DNA from: Chiloscyllium plagiosum
Taxonomy: Eukaryota
Assembly: GCF_004010195.1 (NCBI RefSeq)
Contig: NC_057753.1
Coordinates: 2,459,285 to 2,519,284, forward strand
DNA length: 60,000 bases
Reading direction: 5' to 3'
Of this stretch, positions 1-53,626 are shown piece after piece (position 1 is the stretch's first letter; the number at the start of each line of letters is the position of its first letter). The translations under genes were made by a program, and so were the position numbers. Below the pieces are notes generated by a model. That model saw nothing but the letters and a program-made list of their open reading frames with translations, was not told where the DNA came from and searched no databases.

Positions 1-368
1 TATTTCAGGCAAAAACAGGAAAAAAGAGGCATCTGTCACAGATACAGGGCAGAGAAGTTAATACTTACTTTTTCTGTGTGTTGACAGTTCGAAATTTATT
101 TTCAAGCAATCTCACGTGAGTGGTCCAAGGAACTAGGTACGCCGAGGAACTGAAAAGAAAAAAAACAATTAATAGTGAGAGATTTGTGTTGAAGAAATTA
201 ATGCAGAACTATTGTAGGATGCTTGAAACCAAACATTCGGTATTCTATTCTAAATATTCTGAAGGATTGAGCAGCCATGGAGGTAGATAATACGTTTGTG
301 ATGATCCTCCAGCGTTCTGTCGATTCCGAAGTGGATCTTAAAGATTTCTTTACACAGAGAGCAATAGG

Positions 369-735
369 GGCGTAGAACGCACCACCTTCAAAGGTAGTAG
401 ACTCGTCAACTTTAAGGGTATTTAAATGGTCATTGGATGAACTTACGCCTGAAAATGGAATAGTGGAGGATAGATGGGCGTCAGCTTGTTTCTGTAGGTT
501 GGCAGAACATAGAACATAGAACATAAAAAAAATATAGCGCAGTACAGGCCCTTTGGCCCTCGATGTTGCGCCGATCCAAGCCCACCTAACCTAAACTAGC
601 CCACTATCCTCCATATGTCTATCCAATGCCCGTTTAAATGCGCATAAAGAGGGAGGGTCCACCACTGCTACTGGCAGGGCATCGATGGCCGAAGGGTCTG
701 CACAGCATGGTAATTTTCTACGTTCTATGTTTTCT
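369..735. mobile_element. CR1 LINE 3' end (+) interrupted at ~506-682 by a minus-strand 3' end of a related CR1
   Basis: Plus-strand tail ...ggttggcagaacat / cgatggccgaagggtctg...ttctacgttctatg is split by a reversed tail (agaacatagaacata...caggccctttggccctcgatgttgcgccg); ORF 591..797 contains CR1 C-terminal-like 'VVDPPSLCAFKRALDRHM'. Confidence 0.7.
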
Positions 736-1299
736 GATTGCAAATGCCATCCTATTATATGGGAATCTGTCAATCCTAAACGAACAGTTGGGATCATATT
801 TTATTCTGATGATAATGGTCATGTTGTTGTCATCTGGTCTCTTGATCTCTACTTTGCAGAGGCTGAATATCTACGATCAGACCCTTCCTTCTATCCCCAA
901 GAAGCATGACTCTGAATCAAGCACTTGGTTCCAGAACTGTCATTAATCTAATTAGGTCAGAGTCGCTAGATAAGTCTGCACTTAATGACTACCAATTGTC
1001 ACTCTTGAAACGATTCAGTTTGAGGTTGTCATGCAATGCCATTATGCGATGAGTTCCAAGATATTCATTCAATGACACTCATGGCACAAAGACAAAATTT
1101 CACGCTAAGACAAAGAGTGCTTGGAACAAGAAATTGCATTTGATGGTACTCCCAATTACTTTTCATGCTTGTTCTTCTCGATGGTAGTAGTTGTGTATTT
1201 AAAAGATGCTGTTTAAAGAACATTGCTTAATTTCTGCAGGTCATCATATATTTGCTGCATATGTATTAAATATTACGGTGACGGAGCATCGGTAGTGAA

Positions 1300-2760
1300 G
1301 AGAAATGATATTGTGCATGTGCTGCCAATCAAATGGGCTGCTTTTTCTTGGGTGGAGTCAAGCTTCCTGAGTGTTGTCGAAGTTAGAGAGCTGAGAAATA
1401 TTTCATCACAATCCTGACTTTGCCTTGCAGATAGTGGACAGCATTTAGGGAGTCAGGATTTAATTTACAGCCCGTTTATGTTCAGTGCAGTTCATTTCCT
1501 AGACAATGATAATCCCCCAGGAAGTTAACAATGAATGATTCAGTGCCTATAATGCCAGTGAATGTAAAACAATGATGGTCAGATTCTCTTTTTTGTTGGA
1601 GATAGCCATTGCTTAGCTCTTGCATGGTACAAATATCGCTTACCTCAATTCAACCAAATCTGGATAATGCTCAATTTGACGTGTATTTGGACAGGAACCA
1701 CGAGGAATCGTCAATGGTGCTGAGTATTGTGGAATCACCTTTGAACATTCCCCATGCCTCTGGAACGTATGATGGAGGGAATGTCATTGACAAAGCATCT
1801 GAAGGTTTTTGGTTTGAAGACAATGCCCGAAGGAACTCTGGCAGAGATCTCCAAGAGCTGGCATTACTGGCCTCCATCAACCATAACTACATTCCTTTTG
1901 CTAGAAATGAGTTCAGCAAAAATACAGTTTTCACGGATTCCTAAAGCTTCTGGTTTTGCTCTGGTACCTTCAAATTACACTCGGTGAAATTGGCCTTGAT
2001 GACAATAGTGGCGTATTTCACCTGCGCTCTGAAATTCAACACGTTTGTCCATGTTAGTAACAAGGGTATAACGAGGTTAGGAGCTGAGCAGCCTTAGCGG
2101 AGACGAATGTGCATCATTAAGCATGGTAATGCTGAGCAAGTCTTGCTTGATAGCACTGTTGATGCAAACTTCCATCACTTTACGAACACTCAAGACAAAA
2201 CTGATGGGTGATAATTTATTGGATTGGATTTTCCAATTTATTGTGTGCATAATATACTGGGGCAATTTTGTACATTATCGAGCCAATGTCTGTGCTGGAA
2301 CTGCACTTAACAGTGTGTCTTGAAAATACGGTAAGGGATGTAGGGAGTTGCTTGAGCACAAACCATCACAAGTTAATGCAGGAATATTTTCAGAGCCCAT
2401 GGAATTTGTCATATCTGGAGACGAATCGTTTCTTTATGACACATAGAGTAAACCGAATTGAATGACGACTGGCATCTGTGATGCAAGGCAGCACTAGAGG
2501 AGGCTGCAATGGATCATGCACTTGGCACTTTTGTTGAGAAAGTTTTGCAAATCCTTCAAACTTACGTTTTGCTCCCGGGTGGAAAATTGAACGAGGATAG
2601 GTGTGAGACGTCTCCTTCACTACTGAGTTATTTAATTTTCCAGTACCATTTGTGACAATAACGAAGCACTCCAGAACTTCAATTTGATGCACTGATTATG
2701 GAATCGCTTGACTCTCTTTTATTTTTTTGCCGATTGCTGTTTGGCAGGCAAATAATCATG
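1300..2760 (-). mobile_element. Old, degenerate CR1-clade LINE, reverse transcriptase region
   Basis: Minus strand gives RT-like 'PISFVLSVRKVMEVCINSAIKQDLLS..MLNDA' (ORF 2077..2265) and remnants of the LDIKAAFDRV and KKLDTIQDKAA blocks; homologous copy at 41560-43010. Confidence 0.75.
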
Positions 2761-2770
2761 TTCGCACATT

Positions 2771-3090
2771 TATTTTCCCTGCAGTGACGGAGTCCAGAAT
2801 TAGAGGGTATAGGTTTAGGCATGGAGAGGGAAGATATAAGAGAGACCTAAGGGGCAACCTTTTCATACAGAGGATTTTACGTGTTTGGAATGAGCTGAAG
2901 AGGAAGTGGTGGGGCTAGCACAATTGCAACATTTAAAAGGCATTTGGATGGGCATATGAGTAGGAAAGGTTTGGAGGGATATGGCCAGGCAGTCTGGTCG
3001 GATTAGTTTGAGTTGGGATATCTGGTCGGCGTGGACAAGTTGGACTGAGGGTCTGTCTCTGTGTTGTACATCTCTATGACGCCATGTCTC
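2771..3090 (+). mobile_element. CR1 LINE 3' fragment
   Basis: 'ESRIRGYRFRHGEGRYKRDLRGNLFIQRILRVWNEL' followed by the 3' UTR ending tgtacatctctatgac. Confidence 0.85.
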
Positions 3091-3719
3091 TACTGCTGTT
3101 GAGTGTTCGCAGCACCTCTATCTTGAGTTTCTAAATCTAATCAAAATCTCTTACATTTAGCACGATAGTAGTGCCTGATAGAATGATAAACAGTATTCTC
3201 AGGGCGATGGAAACTTGAGCTACGGATCAGATGATACAGCATTTTTTTTAAAAATGGACTTTGTCTTCACAAGGATTGTATGGTAACCAATCCTACTGAT
3301 ACTGCTATGAAACAGAATCATCCGTCCTGAGGCTGAGGTGGTGTATTTATTTCTCTCTTGATGGTTTCCTCATCGTTGGTCTGGTCGGGCAGCAATATCC
3401 ATTAGGCCTCAGCTGACCTGGGCAATAGTGCTGCTGGCGAGACATTGTTGTTGGTTGTGATTAAAATCCCTCAACCAGATAACATTTCGTGCCCTTTCTG
3501 CCCTCACAGCTTCCTCCAGTATTGTTTGAGATGTATGAGGATTGATTCATATGTTTGACAAATTGGGGCACAAATGCATGGAACTCTCCTGTCCACCGTA
3601 GATGTATTGGGATGAGGCTTTTCAAGTAGAAACTGATTTTAGGGTGAGAGATATGATCTGCATGGATTGATACTTCAATCAGATGGACCATATCCTGTTT
3701 TCTGTGCATTCTCCTGAGA

Positions 3720-5955
3720 ATCTGTGGTCACGACCGATGGCATATTTCCTGATGGGTGCCCAGGTCAAATATGTCTCAGTTCGAGTCTGCAGGATTCTTA
3801 AGGAGGGGAGCTTGGGGAGAGCAGCCAGAAGTTGTGGTACACATTGGTATCAATGACATTGGCAGGGAAAAGAAGGAAAAACTGAAGAGCGAATGTAGGG
3901 AGTTCGGCTAGAAGTTAGAAAGTAGGGTGAGCAGAGCAGTGATTTCAGGATTGCTGCTGTTGTCACGGGGAAGTGAGACTCAGAATAGATACCGAGCGCA
4001 TTTGAACACTTGGCTGCAGGGCTGATATAGGAGACAAGGCTTCAGAAAAAGTTGAGTATTGGGATATCTTCTGGGGAAGGGAGACCTTTAAATGAAGGAT
4101 AGCTGTACATGAATGAGAGAGCCACCAAAATCCTGGGCAGAAGGTTTGCTAGATCCCTTTAGTGGGGGGAGCTGAGCGAGCGATCAGATGATGGAATCGG
4201 TAGAGAATAGCCAAAGACCGCGTGCAAAGAGTCTGTGAGGAGGAATAGGTGCTTGGTAGGACAAAGGTGCTGTCAGTGTGGCGGGGTGAAGTGTATTCAT
4301 TGTAATGCAGGAAGTATCAGGAATAAAAGTGACGAACTTAGAGCATGTATCAATATTTGGAACAATGATGTTCTGGCAACTATGGAGATTTGGATATTAC
4401 CGAGGCAGGAATGGTTGTTGGATGTTCCAGGATTTGCATGTTTCAAATGGAATGAGGAGGAGCTATAAGAGTTTGGCAAGTGGCATTGCTAATCAGGGAT
4501 AGTATCACAGCTGTGGAAAGGGAAGTCGTCAAGGATAGTTTGTCCACAGAGTCAGTCTTAGTGGAAGTCATAAATAGGAAATAAACAGTCAGTTTATTCG
4601 AAGTTTTCTCCAGAACCCCCATAAGCAACAGTGTCACGGAAGAGTACATTGTGAGGCAGAGTTTTGAAAGGTGCAGACGCAATAAGATTGTTGTCATGGT
4701 GACTTTCACTTCCCTAATATCGATTGGATCCTTCTTAATAACCATATTTTGGATAGAGAATTTTTTATCTGGCATGTACAGGAAAGGTTGCTGATTAAAT
4801 ATCTAGAACGGCCGACTAGAGGGGAGGCCGTATTGAACTTGGGGCTTGGCAGCAACCAAGTGACAGATCTTATGTTGGGAGAGCATTTTGGTAAAAGTGA
4901 TCAGAAGTCCCTGATTTTTACTATATTCATGTAGAGTGATCGGAGCAGACGGTCGGGGGAAGTATTTAGTTGGGAGGAGCGGGAATTGTAATGCTTTAGG
5001 AACTGTGATGCCTTAATTGGTAACAGTTGTTCTCAGGGAAATGCATGACAGAAATGTTGAGTTTGTTTCGGCAACACTTGCTGGTAATGCTGGACAGGTT
5101 TGTTCTGTTGAGGCATGGAAGGGATGGTGACAAGGGATGTGGTACATTTAGTCAAGATGAAGACTGAAGCTTACTTAAGGTTGAGAAGGCAAAGGTCAGA
5201 CACGACTTTAGAGAGTGACAAGGTAGCCAGGAAGGAACTACAGAATGGGCTTAGGAGAGCTAGAAGGTGGCATGAAAAAGCTTTAGCGGGTAGGGATAAG
5301 GAAAACACTGCACTTCTACACTTACGTGAGCGACAGGATGGGAGGACAGATCAGGGAGAGTAAAGGGAAGTTGTGCCGAGAGTCGGAAGAGGTAGGGGAG
5401 ATCCTTAATGACTACTTTGCTTCAGTATTCATGAGTGAGTGAGAGAGAACTTGACTTTTCTAAGGACAGCTTGAAACAGACTGACATGTTCGAACAACTT
5501 GATGTTAAGAAGTAGGATGTACTGTAAAATTTCAAAAACGTAAGGTTGGATTTAGTAGTGGTTAATGAACCCAGCCAGGTGTTAGATTTGGAGTTAAGTG
5601 AGCATTTTGGTGATAGTGACCACAATTATGTTTCCTTTCGCGATGGAATATATACACAACAAGGTAAGGGTTATAGCTGGGGGTAAGGCAGTTATGATGC
5701 GATTAGGCAAGATTTTGGATGCATAGGATGGGGAAGACACCTGCAGGGGATGGCCACAATTGAAAAGTGGAGCTTATTCAAGGAACAACTAATGTTTGTC
5801 CTTGATTGGTATGCACCTGTGAGGCAGGGAGTAAGTGGCTGAGCGAGGGAGCCATGGTTTACTGAACAAGTTGAATATATTGTCAAGAAGAAGAAGACAG
5901 ATGTTAGGATGAGGCGTGAAGGCTGTTATGGCGATTGAGAGTTACAACTTAGCCA
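3720..5955 (+). mobile_element. CR1 LINE 5' part (ORF1 SGNH-esterase remnant, ORF2 APE endonuclease) plus a second endonuclease-region fragment from ~5545
   Basis: 'QPEVVVHIGINDIGRE' near 3822-3870; 'KCIHCNAGSIRNKSDELRACINIWNNDVLA' (ORF 4235); 'RPTRGEAVLNLGLG...GEHFGKSD' (ORF 4749); the EHFGDSDH block recurs at ~5600. Many stops and frameshifts. Confidence 0.85.
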
Positions 5956-6210
5956 GGTTCATATTACAAATGCACAAAGTTTTTGTTTGTCTGTATATAG
6001 AATGCAATAAATACAAGATACTGTAATCCACGCTGTCATTTTCTCAGGTCAGTTTTGCATTTTTAACTTTGTCCAATAAATGGCCACGACACAATTGCAT
6101 ATGAAAGCGATTCTTAACCGAGCGTAGCTATGAAGGATGGCATAAATTACGGCACAACAAATGTTCTGTCTTACAAGAATCTGATTGGAAACTAAATCAC
6201 AGCAATGCAG
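5956..6210 (-). pseudogene. Antisense remnant of GPR139-like exon 2 (TM3-ECL2), unit 1
   Basis: ORF 6049..6312 ends 'ICCAVIYAILHSYARLRIAFICNCVVAIYWTKLK', aligning with 'ICSLHSALTYAS..VWLTVTFTFDRFVAISCQKL' of the intact gene. Confidence 0.65.
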
Positions 6211-7294
6211 CAATTGCACTTCCTGAACCATCTGAGCTGGAGAATTCCACACATTCACAAGTATTTCTTTAAAACAAATCTCAACTGAAATCTGAAAGAG
6301 CTGAAGAAACACAGCCGGAAACTTTTACTGCATGTATAGTATGAGACGAAAACTTTTTTGTGTCGACTCTGATTTTGTTTTTCTGAGTTTGGGAAACAGT
6401 TGCCGTGCCAGACAGCCTTTTGCTAGCCACGAGCTGAAATACAGGGAAGTTGTGTAATACGAGTGCAATCCTTGTCCAGGATATCGTTAACTGTGAGGGA
6501 GTGTCGTTTCCACGATATCATATGAATATGGTTGTGCTGAAATCTAGTTATCCGGCATGCCAGATGGCTGGAATGAATCTGGTGACATTAGTAATTGAGG
6601 CAGGTCAATCTAAAGATCTGAATCCAGTGTAAAATTTAGCTGAACAACAGTTAAAAAAAATCACTCACCTAACACGCTAAACATAAAACAGTCAGCAACT
6701 GACGTGAGGGAGCAGTACTGGATGTGATCATGCTGAATGCAACTATCGACATAATACATAACAAAACCACGTGTGCGAGAATGCAAAACCATGCACATTT
6801 TTATACAGGGTAGAAGTCTCCTTAACTAGGTTTGGCTACAATATCTAAACTGACTCATACAGTAAAAATGATTTTCCACATCACAGAGAGTTAGAATCGC
6901 AGCTGACTCGTCATTGCACCTGAAACACATGTATAAGGAGTGAGGTTGCACTGATTGAAGTTCTTCTGAAAAAATTACATTTTTGAGCATATTGTGTCAT
7001 GAAAAACGATGTTTTGTCTGTGCTCTCACGGACTGCTCCTTTCATTTATGTGAAGGCACACAAATTGGTTGTTATGTAATCTCTTGGTTTTCCACGTTAT
7101 TATCATATGAACGCTCATGAAAGCAAAATTTCTTTTCCATCGAACAAAATCTAGCAAGCGCAGATGCACATGCACCAATCTTATTGTTCAATTAACTTTT
7201 TTTAGAACTCGAATTAGCTCCCTGCTACGTGGCATTCAGTATAATTGCCCAAATCTTCAGTCAATTACAGAATGTGCCCAGAGCTTTCGCTGAA

Positions 7295-9340
7295 ATCCAC
7301 TGAATACCAAAGGGTCTACTGTTTTCCATCTGGTTAAAAAACACACAACACCATTTTGTAGTCCAGCAGTTTTAATTAGAAACACTAGCTTCAGAGGGCT
7401 GCTCCGTCATGAGGTGGTTGTGGAGTACACGATTGTAAGACACAGAATTTATAGCAAAGGTTTACAGTGTGATGCAGCTGAAATTATACATTGAAAATTA
7501 CCTTAATTGTTTGTTAAGTCTCTCATCTATTAGAATTAACATGTTAGTTTCACTTCTTCTATATGTAAATCGCAAAACATTTAAATAAAAAATTACATTC
7601 TCAAGTGAACTTTAACAATTTGCATCAGTCCAGGTAATGTAATGGATGTTAGTGCCTCTGTGTGCTGCTATCTGTGACATAATGTTCAGACTGATTCTAA
7701 TTTTTAAAAAAAATGAATTAACAGAATCTTACATGGATTCATGGAGTTTTTGAGCAAAGTACAATGTAACTTTCCAAATGCAAATTCAACCCAAAATGTT
7801 ATATGTGTATGTATGCGTGTAGGTATGCATGTGTGCATGTGTGTTGGGGGTGGGGGAGGGGGGGGAGTGGAGAGTGTTGTGCGTTGGTGGTGGGGTTGCA
7901 AGTGTCTGTGAGACAGAGTGCATGTGTGTGTCAGTGCAAAGGGATCTAAGTCTGTGAGAGGATGCATATGTGAGTGTGTGTGTGTCTGTAAGAGTGTGTG
8001 GGGGTCTGAGGGAGTGTATGGAGTGTCTGCATGTATGTGTGTGTGTAGGAGTGTCTGTATGTGTGTGCATAGTACAATAGGGTCACCTGTAGTGTGACAT
8101 GAACGCAGGACCCGGTTGAGGTGATCCGTATGGGTACCAAGCTTAGCTATCAGTCTCTGCTCAACCACGTTTCGCTGCTGCTTGTCCCGAAGTTCGCCTC
8201 GGAGGATGGCAACCCGAAGTCCGAGGTCGAATGTCCCAGATTGCTGAAGTGTTCCCCAACTGGGAGGGAACACTCTGTATGTTGATTGTCTGCCCATTCA
8301 TTCATTGCCTTAGCCTCTGCTCAGTTTCACTAATGTACCATGCAATGGACATTCGACCACTGAATTTCGAGTGACAATCCTCCAAGGCAGACATCGGGAC
8401 AGGCAGCAGCGAACAGTGGTCGAACAGAGGCTAGTAGCTAAGTTCGGTACCCATAGGGATGGCCTCAACTGGGAACTTGGTTTCATGTCACACTACAGGG
8501 TGACCCAATTGCACTATATACACACATGTAGACACTCCTAGACACACACACACGGGCATCGTATATACATACACACACACATACGCACCCATACAAAGAC
8601 ACAAAACACACTTTTACACACATAACCACTCCCACAGACACACACACTCCTACAGACACATGCACTCATACATGTCTCACAGACTTAGACCCCTTTACAC
8701 TCACACACATATACAGTCTGTCTCACCGACACTCGTAACCCCACATCCCATCCCCCCCACCCCACCCCCACACACACCTGTATACGTAAGTGGAGTGAAT
8801 TCCTACTTGCAAAGTTACATTGTAATTTGCGCAAAAACTGCGTGAATCCATGTAAGATTCTGTAAAATTCATTTTTAGATTGAAATCAATCTAAACATTA
8901 TGGCACAGACAGCAGCACACAGAGATCCTAATATCCAATAAATTATTTGGACTGACATCAAATCGTAAAGTTCACTTGAGAATGTAATTTTTTTAAAAAA
9001 CCGTTTTTTGATTTACATACGAAACAAGTGAAATTAATATGGTGATTCTCATAGATGAGAGACTTAACAAACAATCAAGATATTTTTAAATGCATAATTT
9101 CAGCTACATCACACTGCAAACTTTTGCTATAAATTCTGTGTCTCACAGACGTGTACTCCACAACCACCATATGAAGGAAAAGCGCTCCGACCGCTGGTGC
9201 TTCCAATTAAAATGTTGGAGGATAACTTGGTGTTGTGTGACTTTTTTTTAAAAAAGCTTTGTACACCGCAGTCCAACACCAGCATCTCCAATTCACGTTT
9301 TTCATTTAATGTCCTTTCCTTGCAATTATTTGGATTCCAG
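7295..9340 (+). pseudogene. GPR139-like pseudogene A, exon 1, split by a Penelope-like insertion (halves ~7295-7329 and ~9297-9340)
   Basis: gaaATCcacTGAataccaaagggtctactgttttccat matches intact gaaATGcacggaataccaaaggctctgctgttttccat; the second half ...cttgcaattatttggattccag|cttaagt matches cttgcaattatcgggattcctg|gttaagt. Start codon and GT donor are lost. Confidence 0.8.
7330..9296. mobile_element. Penelope-like element (GIY-YIG 3' end + 3' UTR) as a ~0.9 kb-arm inverted repeat
   Basis: ~7335-8236 is the reverse complement of ~8346-9247; minus strand reads 'WYISETEQRLRQ*MNG' and 'LRVAILRGELRDKQQRNVVEQRLIAKLGT'; each arm has a TG/CA-rich tract; imperfect TSD gttttccat (7321) / gtttttcat (9297). 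Confidence 0.85.
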
Positions 9341-10212
9341 CTTAAGTATTCGACTTACACTTCACTGCATCATTTGTACCATTTTGCGAACAGTGCATCT
9401 CCTTTTCCCTCGCATGACATGCATTAGCTCTCTTCACATTAGATCGTCTTTGGTCTAATTCGTCTGAGCTACCCTCTTATACAGTATCATTTCCAACCTT
9501 AGCAGAATTAATTAATCAAATAAATGAAACATCTACGGAATAGTGACATAGTTTCACAGTATGAGTGCCATATTTTTTTCCGTGAATAGTTTTTGCCAAA
9601 CTACTTTATCAATGTACATTTCTTGTGGTGCAATTATGATTTCACCCCATTTCCGTTATACTCTCCTGCGACAGTACTATGCCATTCTGTTATTTCTGTT
9701 TCCTTCATCAACTACTGACGACTTACCATGCATATATGTTTCGATTTTTATTCTCATTTTTTTGTATGAAGTGCGAAGACATTCCTGTTGTATTATTGCC
9801 AATATTATTCCTTGTCAGGTAATGCAAAGGTATTATAGTGAGAAGTACGGTTACTGAGACATTGACACTTGCTGTTGTTGAATCTTTGTCCGTTATCACA
9901 GTGCAAATGGAGTCCCATTACATTGTTGATGGTGTTACAGTATGTGATTTATCTTACTCTTATTATTGTAAACATACCACTTTCTTGCATGGCTGACAAA
10001 TTTAAGTGGGCGATAAGCATGCGATGTGTTGTTGTCAGCGTATTGTGTGTAAACTTCCACACTATTATCAGTGTCGATGAGGAATTGTTGTGACATTCAC
10101 TTTTTGATTTCATGATTTTGTTTAGAAGTATCAATTGATAGCGAGGTTGAAGTACTGAAGAAATCCTTGCGGTTTTCATGTGTCAGTTTCCTGAACATGC
10201 ACTAATTGACAT

Positions 10213-12417: not shown

Positions 12418-12810
12418 TACACATAGTTGCATAACATTGATACAGACTCTTCGATACAAGTCATCCATTCCCACCAAGTTTCCCAAATTAAGCCAGTCCC
12501 ATTTGCGTTCATTTGTTCCACATCCATCTGAATATTTTCGATAAATGCACCTGTCCATTTGTCTTTTAAATGTTTTAAAAGTGGCTGCGTCACAGAAGCC
12601 CATTCCACGTACGAAAATACCCTCTGTGTGAAAACAAAACTGCACCTCAGGTCCCTTTTAAGCTTTTACCTTCTCACTTTAAGAATATGCCCTTCAGGTT
12701 TGCGCTCTCCTACCAAAGGGAAAAGATCTTCACTATACAAATTATCAGTGCCCTTTATGAATTGATAAACGTCTACAAATGATTTCTCAACTTACAGAGC
12801 TCCAGTGAAA
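12418..12810 (-). mobile_element. CR1 LINE 3' fragment just downstream of pseudogene A
   Basis: Reversed CR1 tail (caagtttcccaaattaagccagtcccatttg); 'TFKTFKRQMDRCI' on the minus strand; same insertion at 51030-51435. Confidence 0.75.
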
Positions 12811-40655: not shown

Positions 40656-40725
40656 ATGCACAAAGAGCGAACATTTATGGTATTTGCTATTTATTATCTG
40701 GTGCTTGCGGCTATCAGAGTTTCAG
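40656..40725 (+). pseudogene. Orphan GPR139-like exon-1 cassette
   Basis: agaaATG, 70 nt open: MHKERTFMVFAIYYLVLAAIRVS+G, followed by AT instead of GT. Confidence 0.7.
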
Positions 40726-43010: not shown

Positions 43011-44214
43011 ACATTTACCATGTTGGTACATCATTCTATGTCTTCTGCTGTTCCTGTATTATCCTTCTACTTTCTCCATTGAACATCTTCTGGCTTGCTG
43101 ACCATAGTAGAGTGGGTCAGTCCTTGAGATTGAAGATGACACTTGAGTACAATTCTGCTGCTTTTGAGGGCTCATAACTCCTGAGCGATGAGTTGCTAGA
43201 TCTAATAAAAATGTGCTCCATTTCGCGTGGTAATGGTGTCACATAGATTTGTGGACTCTATTTCCAATGTGAAAGCGGTACTTGTGTACAGAAGGACAGT
43301 GTGTTAGTCATTCTTATTGATATTGCCGTGCACAGATGCATCTGTGGCCAGCAGACTGGTGAGGATGAGATGAGGTATGTATTCTATTTTGTTAATCCCA
43401 TCAAACTTGCCCTTTTCTATCAGCAGTGTTCGTTTGGGTGATGCATATGGTCTGCTTGGGTTGATACTTGAATAAGTCTGGAACAATGGAGATTGAAATA
43501 CACAACATTGGACCTGAAGAGACAGAAAGTGACCATTCTGAAGAAGAACGTCTATAATGAATATTGAAATGCTGAACAGGACAATTTAGTACCCAATCTG
43601 TCAGTTCAAAATTGATCTGGTTCAAATAGAAAGTAATTGCGCTTCACTGGACTACTTTGTGGGAAACTGGATATGCTAAAAATGAATATTGCGACAAAGA
43701 ACTGATGAAATGCACACTGAATATCATCAAAAATAGTTGGTCTGATTCTAACAAAACTTAATGACAGCTGGCCAAACCAACTTCGCACGTTTTATTAAGT
43801 TCAGTTGACAGTTGCAGGGACACTGGACAATGTAATTCATCTCTTTTAGGCTCAAACGAGCAGAATAATGCTCAACAGACATAACATGGCATCATTTTCT
43901 GAAGAAATTAGAAAATCATAATTGTCCTTCTCAGTGAAAACCAATGTTTTTACCTTACCTCGTCAATTCTGGTTCTAATAAAGAAATGCAACCGGGATCA
44001 CGGTGTAGTCACTTGATATTTAACACTATAATCCTGTTAGCTCCTAGTAGACACCATAAATCACAATTTATTCCATCGTGTCTTAAAGAGCGGTGCAGCA
44101 GCATCTACATTAACTTGTTTGTTAAAATAAATTTAATTGATCTAAACTGACAAGACAGCAAGGAATTTACCTGGAGTCCACTAGTGCAAACTGAGCAAAG
44201 AACTGCTAGCAGAA

Positions 44215-44284
44215 ATGCAAGCAATACTAACAGGTATGGTGTTTGCCATTTTTTATCCCGTCCATACAGCTGTTGGAATTTCAG
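44215..44284 (+). other. Apparently intact GPR139-like exon-1 cassette with no intact partner exon 2 in the window
   Basis: agaaATG, MQAILTGMVFAIFYPVHTAVGIS+G, canonical phase-1 donor G|GTAAAG; 70 nt like the functional exon. Confidence 0.7.
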
Positions 44285-44929
44285 GTAAAGTATGGCAGTT
44301 AGTCCATAACATAGTGAGTGATTCATCAGATGTAGCAATTGCGCCCATTTTGTTAGAAATGCTCTTCCAGTCGTCATTTCTCCCACATCGTTTTCTCTTT
44401 TACTGCTCTAGTATGATTAGTATATAACTAATATTTTATCCAAATATTTCGCAAGAGATCTGTTCTGTGTTTCATTTCATTGTATGAGTGTTAAATATGA
44501 CTTTTTACTTTTACTGACAGAATTCTGCACTAATAATGCTATAGTTCTCCCATTTTGCCAACACGATAGTTTCTCAACGTTATGTACAGTTTAGACGTAT
44601 TTTACATTTACTATTCTTCCTTGGAAGTTAACATTTTGTTATTTAATTTGTAACGTTTCATGATTTGAGCATGGTTCAGTTATGCTATGACTTTTGGTAT
44701 CAATGGCATTTGCCACTATTCCTTCAACAGATGATTTCAGAAAGAAATGCGAAGCTGCCAGTACCAGAAATGAAGACTTGCAATCATGAAATTGAGTATC
44801 AATCTGACTTTGTCACTGCATTCACATTTCTATAATCCTCGCAACGTATGCTTGATAGATTCGGTGTTCGGATCATGCATTATTGGCGACCAACTTGGTT
44901 TTATTAAGTTCAATCAAATGATTTCAAAT

Positions 44930-45770
44930 CAGAGAGTCGTCTAAAAGGAAACAGACCCTTCAGTCCAACAAGTCCAGGTCGACAAAAATTCCAAACTAAA
45001 CTGGTTCCACCTGCCCGCACATGGTCCCATATCCCTCTAAGCCTTTTTTATTCACGTATTTAACTAAATGTATTTTAGACACTTTACTGCATCTGCATCC
45101 ACCACTACCTCTGGAAATTCATTCCACACAAGAACCAGTCTCTGAAAAAAACAATGCCTCTGATATCTGTTTCAGTCTTTTTCCTCTTACCTTAAATCTA
45201 TGACCCTTATTCTTGAAATCCCACCCGAGGGAAAAGACACTCACGAATCACCATATTGTGCCTTTCATTACTTTCTAAATCACACAGAGGCCACCTACCA
45301 ACCTCCTACGGTCCCATGGTAATGTCACAATCTCTCCACCGTATCTTTATAACTCAAATCCTGCATTCCCGGAAAAATCCTGGGAAATTACATCTGAACC
45401 ATCTCTCGCTGAATAATATCCTTCTTATGACAGGGAGACCAGAACTGGACACAGTACTCCAGAAGAGGTCTCACTAACGTTTCCAACACTGCCCAAGGTT
45501 GCACCTTTACACGAGCAGGTTTTGTCTTTGTAGGTTTTCCAAAATGTCCTACATCTCACTTATCCAAATCATCTCTATCTGCTACTCTTCAGCCCATTGA
45601 CCTAAGTAATCAAGATCTCTTTGTAATCTTAAATAACCTTCTTCAATGTTCACTGGACTACCAATCTTAATGTCGTTCACAAATTTACCGAATATGCTTC
45701 CTATACTCTCATTTGATATCATTTATATAAATGAGAAACAAATGTGGACCCAGCATTGTTCCCTATTGTG
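44930..45770 (-). mobile_element. CR1 LINE 3' fragment at the same site as 21786
   Basis: Both follow ttattaagttMaatcaaatga; colinear tails and ORF2 C-terminal remnants. Confidence 0.8.
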
Positions 45771-46339
45771 CATGTTAAATCAATCTTTCTCGACGTATGG
45801 ACCCATAACCTAAAATTGAGGATGCATTTTTATCATTCAATAACTTCTTCCTAATCAAATTAAGTGGACCATTAATATGATGACTTGAAATCTAATTGAA
45901 TTGGCAGAATTCAATTGAATAATTTGGAGAATCTCTGGTTGCAAATGTAAAATCTAACCCCTGTCCTGAACTTTTGGGTATTCGTCACATTATGCCTGAA
46001 ACATGCCTTTGAGACTTTGATGATCCCTCTCCAAAGTTATATGTGCTTGTGTATAATTCATAGTTATTTCAAACATTTTATGCACGAAATGGTCATGAAT
46101 TCCACGAACATTATGTCGCTGATCTGAACATATTTCACCTGCAGTCTATATAAAAAAATATTCTGTTTTAATGTTTCCAATACTGTGCTAATTGTAATCA
46201 TCTTTGAAGGAATATCTTCTGACAATTGTTATCATGATCATAGTGGTAAGGTCTGCTTTTGTTAATGATAATCGCCTGAAACATTCCACTCACACCGGAA
46301 CGAGTTGTAATTCTGAAACAGCAATGGGTAGAAACAGAG

Positions 46340-46590
46340 TAAACGTAATTGTGTATATGGGTCCCTATAAGAAATACAGAAAGTTGTTTTTTTAATATAG
46401 TGTACAACAAAGACAAGGTCTTGTTATACACGTTGCCATTTTCTCTGTGCAATTTTAAATTCTTGCAACAAACGGCAACAAAGCAATCAAACGTGGAAGT
46501 ATTGCTATCAAGAACGGCATAGATTATGGCAGAACAAATACTAAGCAAGAAACTGGATGGGAAGAATAATCACAACAATGCAACGTTTGC
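46340..46590 (-). pseudogene. Antisense remnant of GPR139-like exon 2, unit 3
   Basis: ORF 46198..46548 starts 'LSICSAIIYAVLDSNTSTFDCFVAVCCKNLK'; the DNA match continues through ttgcacagagaaaatggcaacgtg. Confidence 0.7.
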
Positions 46591-47549
46591 ACTTAATGAA
46601 CAGTCGGAGTAGGCGAATTCCACAGATTCACAACTCTCTGTTTAAACCAAACATCTGAAAGAGCTGACAAAACACAGCCAGATATGCTTGCCACATCAGA
46701 TAATCTTTTTTTGTAAACCACGAGCTGAAATACAGGGCATTGTGTATATATGAGAGAGATTTTTGACTCTGATATCCTTTCTTGTGAGTTTGTGTCTTTT
46801 CAACTGGAGCATACACACAAAAGCTATGCTGAAGTCTAGTTATCCGATTTGGCAGATGGCTTGAATGATTTTGGTGAGATATGAATTCTCTGAATTAATA
46901 TAAATTAATCTGAAGATGTGAATGTGGAATATAACTTTACTGAGCAAAAGAAAAATCACTAACCTAACACACATTAAACAGGAAAAAAAAAAGTAGCAAC
47001 GAATGTGAGGGTGCAATACTGGATAAGATCATGCTGAACGCAACAGTGAGTACTGCAGCCATCCACGTCACACATAACAAAACCCATATGGTTGAGTATG
47101 CATATACACATGCGCCTTTGTAGACACAATCTAATTCTGCTTAACGTAATACGTAGTAAAATCGATATACCGAAAGATTGAGCATTATCAGGAGTGAGAT
47201 TGCATGGATTGAAATTTTTCTGAAAAGAATTATATTTTTGAGCATATTGTGTCGTGAAAAACGATGTTTGGTATCGATATTCATCGTCTGCTCCTTATAT
47301 GTTTGACAAAACGCACAATTTGGTTGTTATGTAATATTTTGGTTTTTCACTTTATCACCATGTCAAACCTCATGAAAGCAAATACATTCTAATGCATTTA
47401 ACAAAATCTAGAGGCAGCAGGCGCAGTAATCTTATTGTTGAATTAATTTTAAAAGAATGGCAATCTAATAAGCCCACCAGTACGTGGCCATAGGTATAAT
47501 TATCACGATCTTCAATGAATTACGGAATGCGCTCAGAGCATCAGCAGAA

Positions 47550-47619
47550 TTGCACGGAATACCAAACGGTCTGATGTTTTCCATTTGCTATCCCATTCTT
47601 GCTGTTATCGAGATTTCAG
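47550..47619 (+). pseudogene. GPR139-like pseudogene C, exon 1
   Basis: TTG (not ATG) HGIPNGLMFSICYPILAVIEIS+G; the phase-1 GT donor position reads TA. Confidence 0.8.
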
Positions 47620-48978
47620 TAAAAGTACTGGATTTGATTAGTAACTATGTTAATCGTCGCTGAACTGCAAACTTTGTACCCTTTCATCAACAGTGCATCT
47701 CCTTTTCCCTCTCATTATGTGTATTACCTTTCTTCACGCAAGATTTTCTGCGCTCTAACTGGCCTAAGCTATCCCCCTATATAAAATGTTAACGTCATGA
47801 ACCCATCATTTTGATGAAAACCTCTACCGAATGATGACATCATTTCCCAGTATTAGTAGCATAATTTTCTTCTTGAATTTTGTGGCGTAATCACTTTAGC
47901 AGTGAACATTTCTTGTGATGCCATTATAATTTCACCCCCTTTCAATATATTATCTTGTGTTATTTATATTTTCCTCATTTGCTTCTAACAATTCAACATG
48001 TACATAAGATTAGATTTTTATTTTCATTCTTTTTGTGTGTAACTTTCTTCTTGTTATTATCGTGCAAAGACATTCCTATCGTATGCTTGTCATTGCTGTT
48101 GTTGTCAAGTAATGTAACGGTACTAAAATGTAAATGCACAGTTACTGAGATATTGGCACTGTTGCTGTTGGTGAATTTTTGATCTGTTATCTCAATGTAA
48201 CTGGAGTCCATCTGCGCTACTGGTGATGTCATTGTATGTGTTTCTCCTTATTGGTATCGCTGTATAAATATTGTTTGTTGCATGGCTGTCCCACAATTTA
48301 AGTGGGCGATTAACAAACGGTTCTCAGCGTGTCATGTGTTATTGTCTGCATATTGTGTGTAAAATATCACAAGATTATCACAATGCAAATTAGGAATTAC
48401 TGCGTTATTCACATTTTGAATTCGTGACACTACTAAAAATGATTAACTGATAGTGAGATTGAAATACTGAAGTATGCTTCTCTGAATTTGATGTAACAGT
48501 TTCAGATAAAATGCTGGTAAACTCTTATCATTTAACGAAGAAATTGTGACTATCCATAGATGACAGAGCACGCTGCATTTTCCTCAATCACTAATACTCA
48601 CTTTGAATTCCATTCTCCACTTCCACATGATCCACCACAGGTGGTTCTACTTTGACAATTGTTGACAGTGAGATTTTCTCCTGCTTCCAGCATCTGACAA
48701 TACGTTATATTTTTTCTACTTTCGCAATTTTTCCAGATTGAGAGAGAAATCATAATTGGGAGCATCTCTGAAATGAAACGAGTAACACTTTTATTTCAAA
48801 TATAAACTGCCGGATAAAGTTAATCAATTGTTACACAGATTGCTGGCCAGCATTAATGAAGTGATTTCATACCAGAATTCAGGAGGGGTGTCTTTCTCTG
48901 TGTCAGAATTCTTCATCTGCGAGTTCCAATGGTTAAAGAGAGGATTCGTTTTGTTTTACGCTCAAGATGTCTGAACAA

Positions 48979-49697
48979 TGTTATAAAGATATGAGTGAAC
49001 TTTTCAGAGAACTAAAAGCAGCAGAACTACCGGACACAGCCACCCAATGTTCTCAAGAAGGTATCAGTGTAACACTCAGTCAAAAAACTCGATTATCGTG
49101 TTGCCTGGAGACAAAAACAAATTCCAATTCGGCCAATCAGTTTAAATTATACCCCGTAAAAATATCTAACAATTTCCAATCAAGTTTGAATTAAGTATAA
49201 TGACAACCTTAAAAGCCAATGACACAATCCGATGCTCTGGCTTTTAAGACTGGGGAAAAAATTGAACAGTTGAGAGGAAAGCTGTGAAACCTAGCACGTA
49301 CAAGACTGCTTGAAAAGATCTCTCTTCAACGTACCTTTTCGATCAGTAACCTGTGACGCTGAAATTCCAAACAAGGAGAAGAGAAGATACAGGAAGATCC
49401 GAAGACAAGAACCTACAGCTGCCTTGATTTGCGATAAGAAATGTTGTTTTATAAATCTTGATTGGGAACTTTTTTGTGCTAGTAATGCAGAGGGGAATGT
49501 ATAAGATAGGTTAGAGAACGAAATTGTAAATAGTGGTTAGTTAATTATTCTCTGTTTTACGTTAAGAAATAAAGTTGATCATTTTTACTTTACATAGTTC
49601 TTGGCAACTCGGATTTTTACAGATTACAGCACGGGATAAATCTTTTCAATGTTGCTGGTTTTAAATTAAGCAGGAGAGTTTGCCACGTGTTGTAACA
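48979..49697 (+). mobile_element. Putative solo LTR (719 bp) in the intron of pseudogene C
   Basis: TGTTATAA...TTGTAACA termini, internal AATAAA (~49568), absent from units 1 and 2 (empty site tctgaattatcaat); eroded 4-bp TSD acaa/atta. Strand inferred from the AATAAA only. Confidence 0.75.
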
Positions 49698-50110
49698 ATT
49701 ATCAATACCCCAGACCAGCGTTTAAATTATTTTATGCCTGCAATGTCTATTCAAATGTTGGTTGCATTATCACATTCCTCTGTTTAAGAATAATTATAAT
49801 CAAGTTGACTTACATGTTCCCTAACAGTGACTAGTTTGGCGTCGACACATTGGAATGAATCACATTGATTCAATGAGATATGATATTGGATAATTTAAGT
49901 TTCCCATTCGATGATTATACACCTGCATATTGTTCTGTGATTTATTGATGGATTTAGATTTCTTGCTCATTTAATACTATTGCATTTCCATTTAGTGTTT
50001 TCAAGACCATTGTATTTTCATTTTGATCTCTTTGGAATCTTTCTCTCTGCATTCCGCGCTCTCTATGAAAATTGATTTTACACTCTCTTTGTCTCCCTCC
50101 GTTACTACAG

Positions 50111-51019
50111 CTAATTTGGTCGTGATTCTGATGCTATCCACAGGAACATATGGTCTCTCTGGCTGTCTCGCTTATTACCTGGTTTCAATGGCAGCGACAG
50201 ATCTCCTGATCATATCTACTATTGTCCTCTAAAACTGGATTGCTGGGATTTATTTTCCAGCAACTTTCATTTCCATCACCCCATTGTGCTGTTTACACTC
50301 TGCCTTGATTTATGCATCGATAGACAGGTAGTCTGGTTAACAGTCACTTTTATCTTTGACCAATTTGTGGCCATTTCATGCGTGAAGCTGAAAATACGAT
50401 ATTGCACTGAAATGGTCGCTGCACGGGCTATAGGAGTCGTGTCCACCCTGAGTTGTATAAAAATGCATTCTTATATTTTGTACATGAACCAATGTGCATA
50501 ATTAGCAATGTGCTGCTGTTCTGCAGCGCAAAGTTAATACTTTCCACCTCACCTGTATGGGCTGCATATGACTGGACGCGATCCATTGTAACTCCCTGTC
50601 GCCCATTCATTTAGATTGTACTGCTCAATTCTCTGACCGTCAGACATGTTCTCGCACACAATGGAGCCCGAAGGAGAGTTCGGGTTCAGAGCAATGGACA
50701 GTACCAGAGAGACCCAGAGGTGGAGAAGCGCCGAAAGTCTGCTAGTTTACTTTTTTCCATCTCGTGTAATTCATCCTATTCTATATATTATTTAGGATAA
50801 CAATCCTCTATGTTCGAATTTCCAAAGTTACTTATTTCTCAGGTTCTGATTCCAATGAGTCAACATTCGTTATTGAGGAAAATGGGTTTATTGTTCAGCT
50901 TCTGACTTCCTGCATCAATCTGTTTACTTATGCAGGAGTACAGGATAAAATTCAGAGCAGAATTAAGAAATGGGGAGAAATATCCATTGAGATTCTTACA
51001 TAAGTCTCTCAAACTATGA
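50111..51019 (+). pseudogene. GPR139-like pseudogene C, exon 2 (full length, disabled)
   Basis: Acceptor ctacag|ctaatttggtcgtg; 'ANLVVILMLSTGTYGLSGCLAYYLVSMAATDLLII' then TAA at 50230; DRF changed to DQF; further frameshifts and a TAG near 50610; ends aagtctctcaaactaTGA. Confidence 0.92.
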
Positions 51020-51029
51020 CGATTGGTTC

Positions 51030-51435
51030 ACAAAGTTTGAGAGCAATGAAATTGACTCTATTCATTCCAAGTCATCGACTTCGACCAAGTTTCCCAAACT
51101 AAACCCTTCTCATTTGCCTGCATTTGAGCCATATATATCTAAACCTTTCCTATTCATGTACTAATACATATGTCTTTTAAATGTGGTAACTGCATCTATG
51201 TCTACCACTCCCATTGTCGCTTCGTTTCACATATGTAACAACCTTCTGCCTGATAAATCTGAACTTCGGGTCGCTTTGAAAGATCCCCTTCTCACAGTAA
51301 AAAATATGCCCTTCAGTTTTGAACACTTCCTCCAGATGGAAAAGAGCTTTGCCATTCATCGTATCCTAAACCCTCTTGATTTTATGAACCTCTACAAGAT
51401 CTCCTCTCAACTTACAATGCTGCAGTGAAAGACGT
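51030..51435 (-). mobile_element. CR1 LINE 3' fragment, paralog of 12418-12810
   Basis: caagtttcccaaactaaacccttctcatttgcc...aatatgcccttcagtttt, same position after the stop codon. Confidence 0.75.
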
Positions 51436-53626
51436 CCACACGATTTACATTAAAATATTTCTGAAACCTGCATCCTCACATATTTGACACTTACTTTCAC
51501 GTGCACATAAAAGCCAATTACATTTTAAGGTCAAGCTTCAAGAAAAATAAATAGGCATATTGATTACACTTTATCTTAAACCATTCAAGAAATCAACACA
51601 TTACTTGAAATATAGGCAACATCATGTCACAATAAGAAGGAGAAAGCAAAATTAATTTATTTATCATCACATTAGGAACATTCTGTAACAGTCCTTTGTG
51701 ATATCCTGACGTCTCGTCTCAATGTCCACACTACAGATAGCCCGTTTTCCAAGGAACCACGTTTCTAATTTTGATCAGTGAAAAATCTCAATGATGTTAT
51801 TGTCAGTTGTTGTAGCTGGGTCGTCTAATGAGCGTTCAAGGCGCTGACGATCACTGTGGAGTCAAATCAATTAATCAACCACATGGTATTATCAAAATGA
51901 TACCATTCTGTCCATTGTGCCAGCACTGACACTTCATGTAGGGTTGACTTCGTGCTATTTTCCTAGCGTTTCCCATAAATTCGCCAGTACAGCATTTCAA
52001 TATTCATCTAATGCCCATCGCACTGCCTTGAATAATCTTGCCTCGTCCACTATTCCAGAACATGCATTCCTGTACTTGACTACGAGCTGTGTAATAAAGC
52101 ATATTTTCTTCCATAGCATTTGTTTCATTTGGAAGTTTCATTTAATCTTTGTCCTCGCATTCTCTATCATTTCATAAGTGGGTCGCGTTTATCACTATCT
52201 TTCTGCCCAAACCACATGTGATAATGAAATCGCTTCTTAGATCTCAGTTCAAACATATATTTTTCCAGGGAAATTGTCCCAATTTCTCTAATTTCACATT
52301 TTAACTGAAGATCCTTATCCCTGAAAACATGTTCATGCATGCCTGCAGAATTCTCATCAATTCATTACGGCGTGCCCTCAAATGTCCATAACTGCGCACA
52401 ATACTTCAGCTGAGGTCTTACTTATGTCTTGATAAAGTGCAACATTATCTCGTTTCTCTTGTACTCTGTGGTCGAGTTAATAAAGCCTGAATATCAAGCC
52501 ATTTGTCACTCAATTGAATCCATGCAGAAAATGCTGAAAGACATCTTCCATAAACCAATTGTTTGGTTCTACTCTCTTGTTACTTGCTGTTCCCGTTTCT
52601 CAGTCATTCATTGCAATTTCACAGAAAGTAATAATATATTGAAAGGGAGGGGGATGTAAGTTCTTGTCCTTTAACATTATTGCTACTGAATTTTCATTTT
52701 GCAGGGGACAGGGTGGACGTGAGGTGTAAATACACAGTCTGGGGTGGATTGGTGTCATGGTAATGAATGTCAACATTTGTCAACATTTGTTTCTTAATTA
52801 AAGCCAGAATGAGAAAAAATAAATTATCACTATTTATTCATTGCAATTATAGAAATTTGTCATGTTCAAATCGACAAATACAGCATCTTCAATGTGTCAC
52901 GCATACCACTAAGACCACGGCCAAAAATATAGTGTCTTGCTTCAAAGAGATCATTAATATATATGCAATTAAAAATAACAAAGGTGAATACCTGAAAATG
53001 CAATTCCATACTTTTCTCAAAGGCATTCCTAATATCAGACATTCCCTCAGTTTTGTAACATTCTCTGAAACATTATTTGCCTTTATCCTGCGTCGACGTG
53101 CTTTAAGTCTTTACGACTTTAACTTTTTCAATCTCGATTGTTACTTGAAAGTACTTGAATTGGACGAGCTTGCCATAAAAGGTGCCATGTAGGACTAGAA
53201 TTGGCATCATCACTGCAGTTTTTTCTGAAATGTCGGTACCTGCATTGAATGTAAAGCTTCACTGAAAAGAATACGCCCTACAATACGATGAAGATTAGAA
53301 AACATCTGTAGAGAGAGAATGATAGTAGACTCTTCAATGCTTCTTGCTGCTCTTTTGGAATGGTAACTGTCCTCATCAGTCATACTTTTGCAATGTTAAG
53401 GTGGGCATCATTTGAGGTTGGGTCCAAATGTGGAGGTTTTAAAATGCACCTGTATGTCTTGAGGGATGAGATTGTCACGAAGGCAGCAGCTGAGCAATCT
53501 CACATGGCTAGAGTGGTGGGCTTGTGCCAGGGTGTGGTCAAAAAACTGAAGGGCTGAGAAGTCACAGCAGCGAGACAGTGAGAGAAAGACTCACTGAGTT
53601 CACGTCCGATGAAGACAGAAGACATT

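Follow-up and report, generated by a model that had tools for sequence, protein, structure and literature searches.

The window analysed here, a stretch of 60,000 nt from Chiloscyllium plagiosum, contains three collinear repeat units that are 68-71% identical in self-alignment, non-coding DNA included. Each unit carries a copy of the same two-exon receptor gene. The original prediction of one intact gene and two pseudogenes is borne out, as copy 2 is open over both exons and copies 1 and 3 are disabled.

3..14793, plus strand: unit 1, homologous span (blocks collinear with units 2 and 3)
18768..28460, plus strand: unit 2, homologous span (collinear blocks)
25706..25775, plus strand: intact gene (copy 2), exon 1, 70 nt, encoding a short N-terminus and the first half of TM1 (ATG, phase-1 GT donor)
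27536..28452, plus strand: intact gene, exon 2, encoding the remaining 7TM domain and including the stop codon (AG acceptor, open frame)
40887..53212, plus strand: unit 3, homologous span (collinear blocks)

In pairwise self-alignment, all 8 blocks are collinear between units 1 and 2 (4,423 nt, 70.9% identity), all 11 between units 1 and 3 (7,481 nt, 67.9%) and 8 of 9 between units 2 and 3 (8,003 nt, 69.5%). Several inter-unit blocks have E < 1e-90, far outside chance, and the inter-unit spacers have at most one repeat-sized block in common per pair. The 12 coordinates on which a common landmark order in the three units had been proposed all fall inside collinear blocks. The proposed triplication of a ~19-22 kb unit therefore stands as a triplication, but 19-22 kb is only the period of the array and not the homologous length. 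An assembly artefact or a recent duplication can be set aside, because the copies are ~30% diverged and single-copy-depth contigs of other samples track unit 2. Gene conversion between exons is likewise out, with dS values of 0.33-0.45 that do not lie below the flanking K2P distances of 0.34-0.42. Contig depth summed over part of exon 2 is high, a quantity that is not equivalent to copy number. Several insertions, and one remnant in a spacer, are further features of the window:

7336..9247, no strand assigned: self-inverted element (71.5%) inside exon 1 of copy 1 (self-blast; no Pfam match), which a minus-strand motif at 8162 leads us to take as Penelope-like
10160..10942, plus strand: insertion in the intron of copy 1 (collinearity gap; ORF 10151-11008; no Pfam match), presumably a Penelope-like GIY-YIG fragment, judging by its motif
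48977..49697, no strand assigned: 720-nt repeat inserted in the intron of copy 3 (collinearity gap; inverted copy at 58490-59209, 74.7%)
35780..35950 (ends approximate), minus strand: spacer sequence with a single C2H2 motif at 35873, a decayed zinc-finger remnant (ORF without Pfam match)

The intact gene encodes a class A GPCR of 328 amino acids in two exons, the N-terminus of which agrees with full-length relatives; human GPR139 likewise has two exons, its intron falling in TM1. Exon 2 matches Pfam 7tm_1 (65.2 bits, profile positions 2-260), and class A membership is evident from the seven transmembrane segments, D54, DRF at 107-109 and N294/Y298, with which the predicted structure and its Foldseek matches concur. 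The predicted structure (pLDDT 90.3) has a beta-hairpin as ECL2, and C83 and C162 are conserved.

The sister copies are broken in several ways, and further fragments of the family are scattered through the window:

7295..9341 (right end approximate), plus strand: exon 1 of copy 1, lacking start and donor, with a stop at codon 3 and split by an insertion of ~2 kb (exon-1 alignment)
11784..12417, plus strand: exon 2 of copy 1, a pseudogene with four premature stops and deletions of 1, 11, 259 and 12 nt (codon projection)
47550..47619, plus strand: exon 1 of copy 3, without its ATG and with an out-of-register donor (exon-1 alignment)
50111..51019, plus strand: exon 2 of copy 3, a pseudogene with three premature stops and four indels of a single base (codon projection)
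5970..6210, minus strand: antisense exon-2 remnant of an older paralogue, TM3-TM4 region (blastn E 5e-10; family HMM 12.7 bits)
24455..24619, minus strand: antisense exon-2 remnant, unit 2 (blastn E 5.5e-7 and 5.5e-10)
46321..46572, minus strand: antisense exon-2 remnant, unit 3, profile positions 69-162 (HMM 16.4 bits; matched by 75 of 77 family queries)
21039..21108, plus strand: orphan remnant of exon 1 that has neither start nor donor (HMM 12.6 bits; 71% identity to the 44215 region, its counterpart)
40656..40725, plus strand: orphan exon-1 remnant just 5′ of unit 3, ATG kept, donor lost (HMM 13.4 bits)
44215..44284, plus strand: orphan exon 1, ATG and GT donor intact, without a sense-strand exon 2 of its own (HMM 11.3 bits)

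The HMM scores of the antisense remnants compare with a best control score of 7.0. The three antisense remnants had already been noticed, while the orphan first exons at 21039, 40656 and 44215 (11.3-13.4 bits) had been overlooked; the two sets together record earlier rounds of gene death. At least five gene-equivalents are thus present in the window, one of which is intact. An orphan exon 1 and an antisense remnant may represent one gene broken by inversion. An arrangement like that of the protocadherins, with an array of alternative first exons, is unsupported, since the donor is absent in two of the three orphans and the third sits upstream of a broken exon 2.

Taken alone, the triplication is ordinary, and it is the family level that holds the interest. 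A protein search returned 703 matches and, by hand count, 119 of the 120 listed carry the names of 12 shark species. The horn shark accounts for 68 of these 120 (hand count), that is, for at least 68 distinct paralogue clusters, and 49 of the 68 listed lie on one 59.5-Mb contig; in the whale shark, 13 of 17 listed matches lie on one 11.7-Mb contig. Clustering at 50% identity gives 104 clusters with E<=1e-30 and, among 17 that were looked up, 16 belong to sharks or rays. Intact paralogues number in the dozens, across 15 species. The suggestion of an elasmobranch genome with many paralogues is supported, and that of a tandem birth-and-death cluster agrees with the paralogues, pseudogenes and lineage-specific expansion found here. 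The receptor belongs to a very large, apparently undescribed GPCR family of sharks and rays: the expansion is not described in the literature searched (titles and abstract openings, with larger result sets covered in part), and neither ‘GPR139’ nor ‘receptor 139’ occurs in the supplements of the whale-shark paper, one file of which was covered in part.

In a quick tree, built without bootstrap and without true GPR139/GPR142 sequences, the 43 rows of the family fall into a single clade (SH-aLRT 92), the sister of which consists of six amphibian and sturgeon rows (support 90). On this tree without GPR139/142, the family is placed in a wider GPR139/142/‘GPR210’ group. The sister lineage, named ‘probable GPR139’ by NCBI (e.g. 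XP_069092602.1), is 32-33% identical to the closest shark and skate members, but it differs from them in being apparently single-copy, with one cluster per named species (20 amphibian matches and one sturgeon match), and in its near-invariant pocket, with W6.48, P6.50, K6.51 and N7.39 in 20 of 20 amphibians.

The original prediction had described the receptors as GPR139/142-like, and this identity holds in part. GPR139 is the best PDB match of the family profile (E 2e-25, 92.6 bits, the next scoring 77.4) and also of three bony-vertebrate relatives, so that it is the nearest solved human receptor by profile. GPR139 is only third and fourth among the four PDB matches of the single window protein, and its Foldseek rank is 7, in a comparison that does not discriminate class A receptors. 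The phmmer match to GPR139 spans only residues 1-99 of exon 2, and with the same program on different databases the window protein scores 99-121 bits against non-mammalian orphans vs 25 bits against human GPR139. With ~20% identity to the human protein (7vug_R), multiple copies and changed ligand residues, the receptor is, as far as its sequence tells, not a GPR139/142 orthologue. The family shares with GPR139 and GPR142 the class A fold, and its automatic NCBI name comes from GPR139; GPR139 and GPR142 are single-copy and activated by Trp/Phe and by peptides, whereas the shark family is multi-copy with pseudogenes and a hypervariable pocket, has C3.25, and has mostly lost the basic residue at 6.51, P6.50 and N7.39.

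Also related are the orphans GPR210A and GPR210B, the subject of a 2019 paper whose first author we take to be Rinne. They are described there as GPR139/142-related non-mammalian orphans of fishes and coelacanth, and the word ‘shark’ does not occur in the paper (PMC6504862). Of the matches outside sharks, two coelacanth proteins, H3B118 and H3BBB8, rank with the nearest. We presume these to be the GPR210 proteins, as their accession offset equals that from ENSLACP00000015589 (GPR210B) to ...19189 (3,600) under a numbering rule that we take to apply. The shark family lies outside the clades of H3B118 and H3BBB8, and no GPR210A reference protein was identified among the matches. The presumed GPR210 proteins keep R/K at 6.51 (8 of 8) and have a conserved pocket (variability ratio 0.64 in a 6-row group).

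If the binding mode were unchanged, the family would sense free aromatic amino acids as GPR139 and GPR142 do. Two papers tie F109, H187, W241, N271 and R244 of GPR139 to Trp/Phe binding by mutagenesis and structures (PMC5430874, PMC8807744), and the latter describes R/K at 6.51 as critical and in contact with the carboxyl group of Trp/Phe. By the family-profile alignment to GPR139, the intact gene has Y, W, N, Y and V at these five positions, with none identical; at Y91 (3.33), W181 (5.42, 5x43), N249 (6.48) and Y284 (7.39, 7x38), 0 of 4 are identical and one is conservative. The basic 6.51, which is V252 in the intact gene, is retained as R/K in only 11 of 176 shark and ray sequences and lost in 165. 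N7.39 occurs in 2 of the 120 matches listed, and the common residues at the positions of D84, E105 and E108 do not include these acidic ones. Besides the profile match to GPR139, this reading can draw on 3.33, aromatic (Y or F) in 106 of 120 matches, on H5.42 in 47 of 120 and on an aromatic residue, W or Y, that 111 of 120 have at 6.48; R2.62, found in 119 of 120, might speculatively be a relocated carboxylate anchor. Dozens of divergent pockets would nevertheless be needless for a handful of amino acids, and we consider aromatic amino-acid sensing of the GPR139/142 type, as originally proposed, very improbable.

The signalling core is fixed, with D2.50, D3.49, R3.50, N5.58, N7.49 and Y7.53 each present in 120 of 120 top matches. 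The pocket (24 positions) is more variable than the extracellular non-pocket positions (69) in four overlapping sequence sets, with ratios of 1.27-1.82 (p 0.013-0.00015). Among 68 horn-shark paralogues the values are 0.43 vs 0.23 (ratio 1.82, permutation p=0.00015), and among 20 amphibian orthologues, all of which keep the basic 6.51, they are 0.016 vs 0.16 (ratio 0.10); mean identity is matched at 0.78 in both sets, though more divergence is to be expected in a set of paralogues than in one of orthologues. This accords with the earlier suggestion of a pattern typical of sensory or immune repertoires, and high pocket variability is reported as a signature of putative chemosensory class A expansions in one study (PMC11886862).

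Genomic drift could also produce variable pockets: a duplication-prone, repeat-rich region would multiply a modest receptor, most copies would be redundant or decaying, and the pocket would vary under relaxed constraint. The presence of one intact copy among at least five gene-equivalents fits this, as does the state of that copy. Its branch is long (0.20-0.26 vs 0.06-0.11 for its orthologues), its pocket carries the unusual changes D3.37V, R5.42W and Y6.48N, and its branch dN/dS of ~0.4 equals that of pseudogene copy 1 (200 shared codons). Of 166 columns conserved in the family, the intact copy deviates at 23, which equals the maximum among 120; it may therefore itself be decaying, a point against the chemosensory reading given below. 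However, relaxation alone predicts equal rates in the pocket and at neighbouring extracellular positions, the signalling motifs are invariant, and dozens of intact paralogues have been retained across the 15 species. The intact copy, moreover, has no disablement vs at least nine in each sister at similar synonymous distance. Drift is accordingly judged improbable.

A large family with highly variable pockets is therefore a candidate for a missing sensory or immune receptor repertoire. Our main reading, to which we give a probability of roughly 45%, is an old tandem triplication in a birth-and-death GPCR family whose most likely use is chemosensory, with varied peptide-like ligands. The window lies inside a cluster of this elasmobranch-expanded class A family, the ancestor of which was an orphan of jawed vertebrates, apparently single-copy, that amphibians and sturgeon still have (on the tree without GPR139/142). 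During the expansion the signalling core was retained, the basic anchor at 6.51 lost and the orthosteric pocket diversified. Paralogues therefore probably differ in the small ligands that they bind, be these polar, peptide-like or derived from amino acids, each having its own set, and probably signal through a G protein, as the beta-hairpin ECL2, polar pocket and peptide-receptor ancestry suggest. The most likely use would be the detection of external or lumenal cues in sensory cells of the olfactory system, taste, skin or gut.

Tandem clusters, a high pseudogene load, lineage-specific size, a short N-terminus and a variable pocket on a conserved core are all shared with expanded class A sensor repertoires (OR, TAAR, V1R/ORA, T2R, FPR, MRGPR and nematode Srw), and Srw-containing clusters are among the Atlas look-alikes. 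The shark family differs from these repertoires in its two coding exons and in matching 7tm_1 only; no OR, TAAR, V1R, T2R or V2R profile was matched in Pfam at E<=0.001. Unlike the known sensor repertoires, it derives from the GPR139-related peptide-receptor lineage (PMC8557429).

The same family history might instead have served an immune or barrier repertoire (like FPRs or MRGPRs) with which leukocytes or epithelia detect peptides of microbial or damage origin; in some lineages it may have been inherited together with the MHC. A hypervariable pocket on a conserved signalling core suits this equally, and the predicted fold is as close to GPR15 and chemokine receptors as to other class A receptors. 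On chromosome 34 of the sawfish, ten ‘probable GPR139’ genes (NCBI) stand in tandem between B2M/MHC-Ib and more MHC-Ib, COL11A2 and RXRB, with three more beside C4 and TRIM39-like genes (13 in the MHC in total), an arrangement that fits an immune role as well, although it is the automatic name that ties these genes to the shark family. In catshark, the nearest relatives lie on a 133.8-Mb contig whereas the MHC chromosome extends past 163 Mb; this subfamily is therefore not MHC-linked there, and MHC linkage of the window's subfamily is unsupported for the catshark relatives. The mammalian extended MHC also contains odorant-receptor clusters, so that MHC linkage is not decisive between sensory and immune roles. 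An immune or barrier use is a possible but rather unlikely alternative, and the chemosensory use is favoured over it.

Two single-cell runs (one sample, tissue unspecified, ~2% and ~6% read) placed 0 reads on either exon, which is uninformative both ways; all 518 placed reads of run X20 fall in repeat bins and none were placed from run X21. Counting against the chemosensory reading, the catshark paper has no GPCR among the 50 genes most specific to ‘brain & olfactory epithelium’, although single members of large receptor families are usually of low abundance.

The same paper reports very few odorant receptors in cartilaginous fishes, and another speaks of a ‘relative paucity’ of GPCRs in them (PMC8455134). 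This published view is at odds with a class A family that is large, has diversified pockets and goes under the automatic label ‘probable GPR139’, and the family is a concrete candidate for the means by which sharks sample the diversity of chemicals or microbes. A more far-reaching proposal, which we offer tentatively and think unlikely in its entirety, is an elasmobranch chemoreceptor family of tens to more than 100 genes, derived from the GPR139-related peptide-receptor lineage, that would read waterborne peptides and supplement tiny OR/TAAR/V1R repertoires. Some of its clusters would sit within the MHC and might read peptide cues specific to individuals. The near-invariant amphibian orthologue provides a reference for the search for the ancestral ligand.

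The window is one unremarkable part of an orphan GPCR repertoire that expanded in elasmobranchs and that has apparently not been described. Self-alignment bears out the predicted triplication: three units lie collinear on the same strand and share 68-71% identity, including non-coding DNA, and the spacers between them are repeat-rich and bear no relation to one another. The original prediction of a unit of ~19-22 kb holds as a period and not as a homologous length; its count of one intact gene and two pseudogenes was correct, the middle copy being open (328 aa) and copies 1 and 3 disabled.

Homologous units (self-alignment) and exons of the intact gene
3-14793, + strand, unit 1 homologous span
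18768-28460, + strand, unit 2 homologous span
25706-25775, + strand, intact gene exon 1 (70 nt)
27536-28452, + strand, intact gene exon 2 (product with exon 1, 328 aa)
40887-53212, + strand, unit 3 homologous span

The two exons are separated by a 1.76 kb GT-AG intron. Copies 1 and 3 have both lost the start. In exon 1 of copy 1 the donor is gone too, codon 3 is a stop and an insertion of ~2 kb interrupts the exon; elsewhere this copy shows four deletions, with four premature stops. The donor of copy 3 is out of register, and the copy carries four indels of one base each as well as three premature stops. Because the intact copy carries no disablement, against at least nine in each sister copy, the sequences indicate purifying selection over most of its history. 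The same copy breaks with the family consensus in 23 of the 166 conserved columns (including D3.37V and Y6.48N), which equals the highest count among 120 relatives, has W at position 5.42 where both orthologues have R, and shows a branch dN/dS of ~0.4, equal to that of copy 1 (200 shared codons). It would seem either to have been re-tuned or else to be starting to decay. At window position 28003, all matching contigs of two other samples have A, not T, which changes Leu180 to Met, the state of both orthologues; this reflects either allelic variation or a wrong base in the window's assembly. Within 27844-28191 a contig of sequencing run X5 differs at 19 of 348 nt, and summed depth rises over the same stretch, hinting at a close paralogue elsewhere in the genome.

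With K2P between units of 0.34-0.42 in non-coding DNA and dS between exons of 0.33-0.45, the triplication is evidently an old event; a comparison of these two ranges gives no sign of conversion between copies. The three copies cluster together (support 98/82) with a whale-shark protein as sister and an epaulette-shark protein next out (clade 100/100), a topology that suggests a genome of carpet-shark affinity and a triplication near that split, but the joining branch is very short and all three copies are long-branched. A family HMM scan (best score on the reversed-sequence control, 7.0 bits) and blastn located three antisense exon-2 remnants and three orphan first exons. Dead genes were thus already present in the unit when it was duplicated, and the window preserves two or more layers of gene birth and death. 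One orphan first exon (44215-44284) keeps its ATG and GT donor, both gone in the unit-2 counterpart; an antisense exon-2 remnant follows 2 kb downstream, and the orphan exon may be half of a gene split by inversion.

A search with exon 2 matched 703 proteins. Clustered at 50%, 104 representatives reach E<=1e-30. Among the matches listed, horn shark has at least 68 clusters (at least 49 on one 59.5-Mb contig) and whale shark at least 17 (at least 13 on one 11.7-Mb contig), hand counts to be read as lower bounds. The 17 representatives whose taxa were looked up comprised 16 sharks, skates or rays and one unnamed, with no chimaera among them. Paralogues are thus many rather than few, and the predicted likeness to chemosensory or immune receptor families stands: the family evolves in their manner, by repeated duplication and loss and with a diversified pocket.

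Identity as a GPR139/142 orthologue did not survive. In a search with the window protein alone human GPR139 reaches 25 bits, and a structural alignment gives ~20% identity; with the family profile it is the top PDB match (92.6 versus 77.4 bits for the next). Orphans of coelacanth, teleosts, crocodile and salamanders are far closer to the window receptor than human GPR139 is, and two coelacanth matches are presumably GPR210 reference proteins, to judge from the arithmetic of their accessions. A salamander-protein search returned 25 matches, namely 20 amphibian clusters (every one from a different named species), one sturgeon and four elasmobranch proteins. In a 64-row quick tree without true GPR139/142, the 43 family rows (four lacking a taxon label) form one clade (support 92), sister to the amphibian/sturgeon gene (support 90), with two further bony-vertebrate clades and amphioxus outside. 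GPR210A/B are fish and coelacanth orphans beside GPR139/142, described in a paper that does not mention sharks (PMC6504862), and the wider GPR139-related lineage is activated by peptide and aromatic ligands (PMC8557429).

For GPR139 activation F109, H187, W241 and N271 matter (PMC5430874), and a positive charge at 6.51 is critical, contacting the Trp/Phe carboxyl group in docking (PMC8807744). The intact gene differs, with Y, W, N and Y at the sites of F109, H187, W241 and N271, and V at 6.51. Outside the family R/K at 6.51 is found in amphioxus (7/8), GPR210-type (8/8), amphibian (20/20) and sturgeon (1/1) sequences; within it, in only 11 of 176 near-full-length sequences (those of 229 that passed the length filter for pocket analysis). 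GPR139-type amino-acid sensing, with the PDB match on its side and the rarity of this charge against it, is highly improbable.

Signalling motifs are unchanged in all of the best 120 matches (120/120). Across 24 pocket positions (standard class A positions of our own selection), the mean pairwise difference among horn-shark paralogues (n=68) is 0.43, versus 0.23 at 69 extracellular non-pocket positions (p=0.00015); amphibian orthologues (n=20), equal in overall identity (0.78), give 0.016 and 0.16. The trend recurs more weakly in whale-shark paralogues (ratio 1.37) and divergent representatives (1.27). The family has kept its signalling core, lost the ancestral anchor, diversified its pocket and repeatedly duplicated and lost genes. 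Different paralogues would bind different small ligands, polar or peptide-like, and together serve as a repertoire; we favour chemosensation, at slightly below even odds (about 0.45). Drift could account for the duplications and losses, less readily for the pocket, and is an unlikely cause of the expansion. The structure model of the intact receptor (pLDDT 90.3) has a beta-hairpin ECL2, which is typical of peptide receptors. The amphibian/sturgeon orphan GPCR (database proteins P0240 and P0312-P0331; 20 amphibian clusters) has a basic pocket that hardly varies (R2.61, K6.51, K6.55, R7.35), with N replacing D2.50, and is a good deorphanisation target.

Immune or barrier sensing draws on the sawfish MHC chromosome, for which the PMC10751288 supplement lists 13 'probable GPR139' genes. 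Ten lie in tandem over ~295 kb inside the MHC (NC_067438.1:13380248-13675527), between B2M/MHC-Ib on one side and more MHC-Ib, COL11A2 and RXRB on the other, and three further genes adjoin C4 and TRIM39-like genes. They are tied to the window's family by name only; of the three elasmobranch chromosome sheets only the sawfish one has a name column, and the main text of PMC10751288 does not mention GPCRs. Against general MHC linkage, the closest catshark relatives of the window gene lie on a contig of 133.8 Mb, and the chromosome with the MHC in that species is longer than 163 Mb. An immune or barrier role is less likely than chemosensation but likelier than drift.

Databases already contain the family genes, but the name assigned to them automatically is misleading. 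No description of the expansion was found among the matches listed for GPR139/GPR142/GPR210 in sharks or cartilaginous fishes, in literature mostly from non-subscription journals; according to PMC8455134, GPCRs are relatively few in cartilaginous fishes. Between units, 35562-36101 (- strand) is a decayed C2H2 zinc-finger remnant, and in whale-shark database model P0041 C2H2 fingers are joined to a family receptor, which suggests that family clusters adjoin zinc-finger genes. Database models P0132, P0183, P0209 and P0241 join family receptors to hemopexin, sodium-channel, integrin or uromodulin domains, and are probably gene-prediction read-throughs marking places where family genes were inserted next to unrelated loci.

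Copy 1 exon 1 holds an inserted 1.9-kb element (7336-9247) that matches its own reverse complement (71.5%), with what we take, from a motif, to be a Penelope-like endonuclease tail; 10160-10942 is presumably a second Penelope-like fragment. Decayed LINE-like fragments in both orientations occupy 3736-5551, 16431-18701 and 38540-39749, and ORF 39174-39617, which we would liken to a CR1-type reverse-transcriptase piece, has no Pfam match. At 53904-54158, within a repeat, a 127-nt unit occurs as two head-to-tail copies of 97.7% identity, evidently a very recent duplication.
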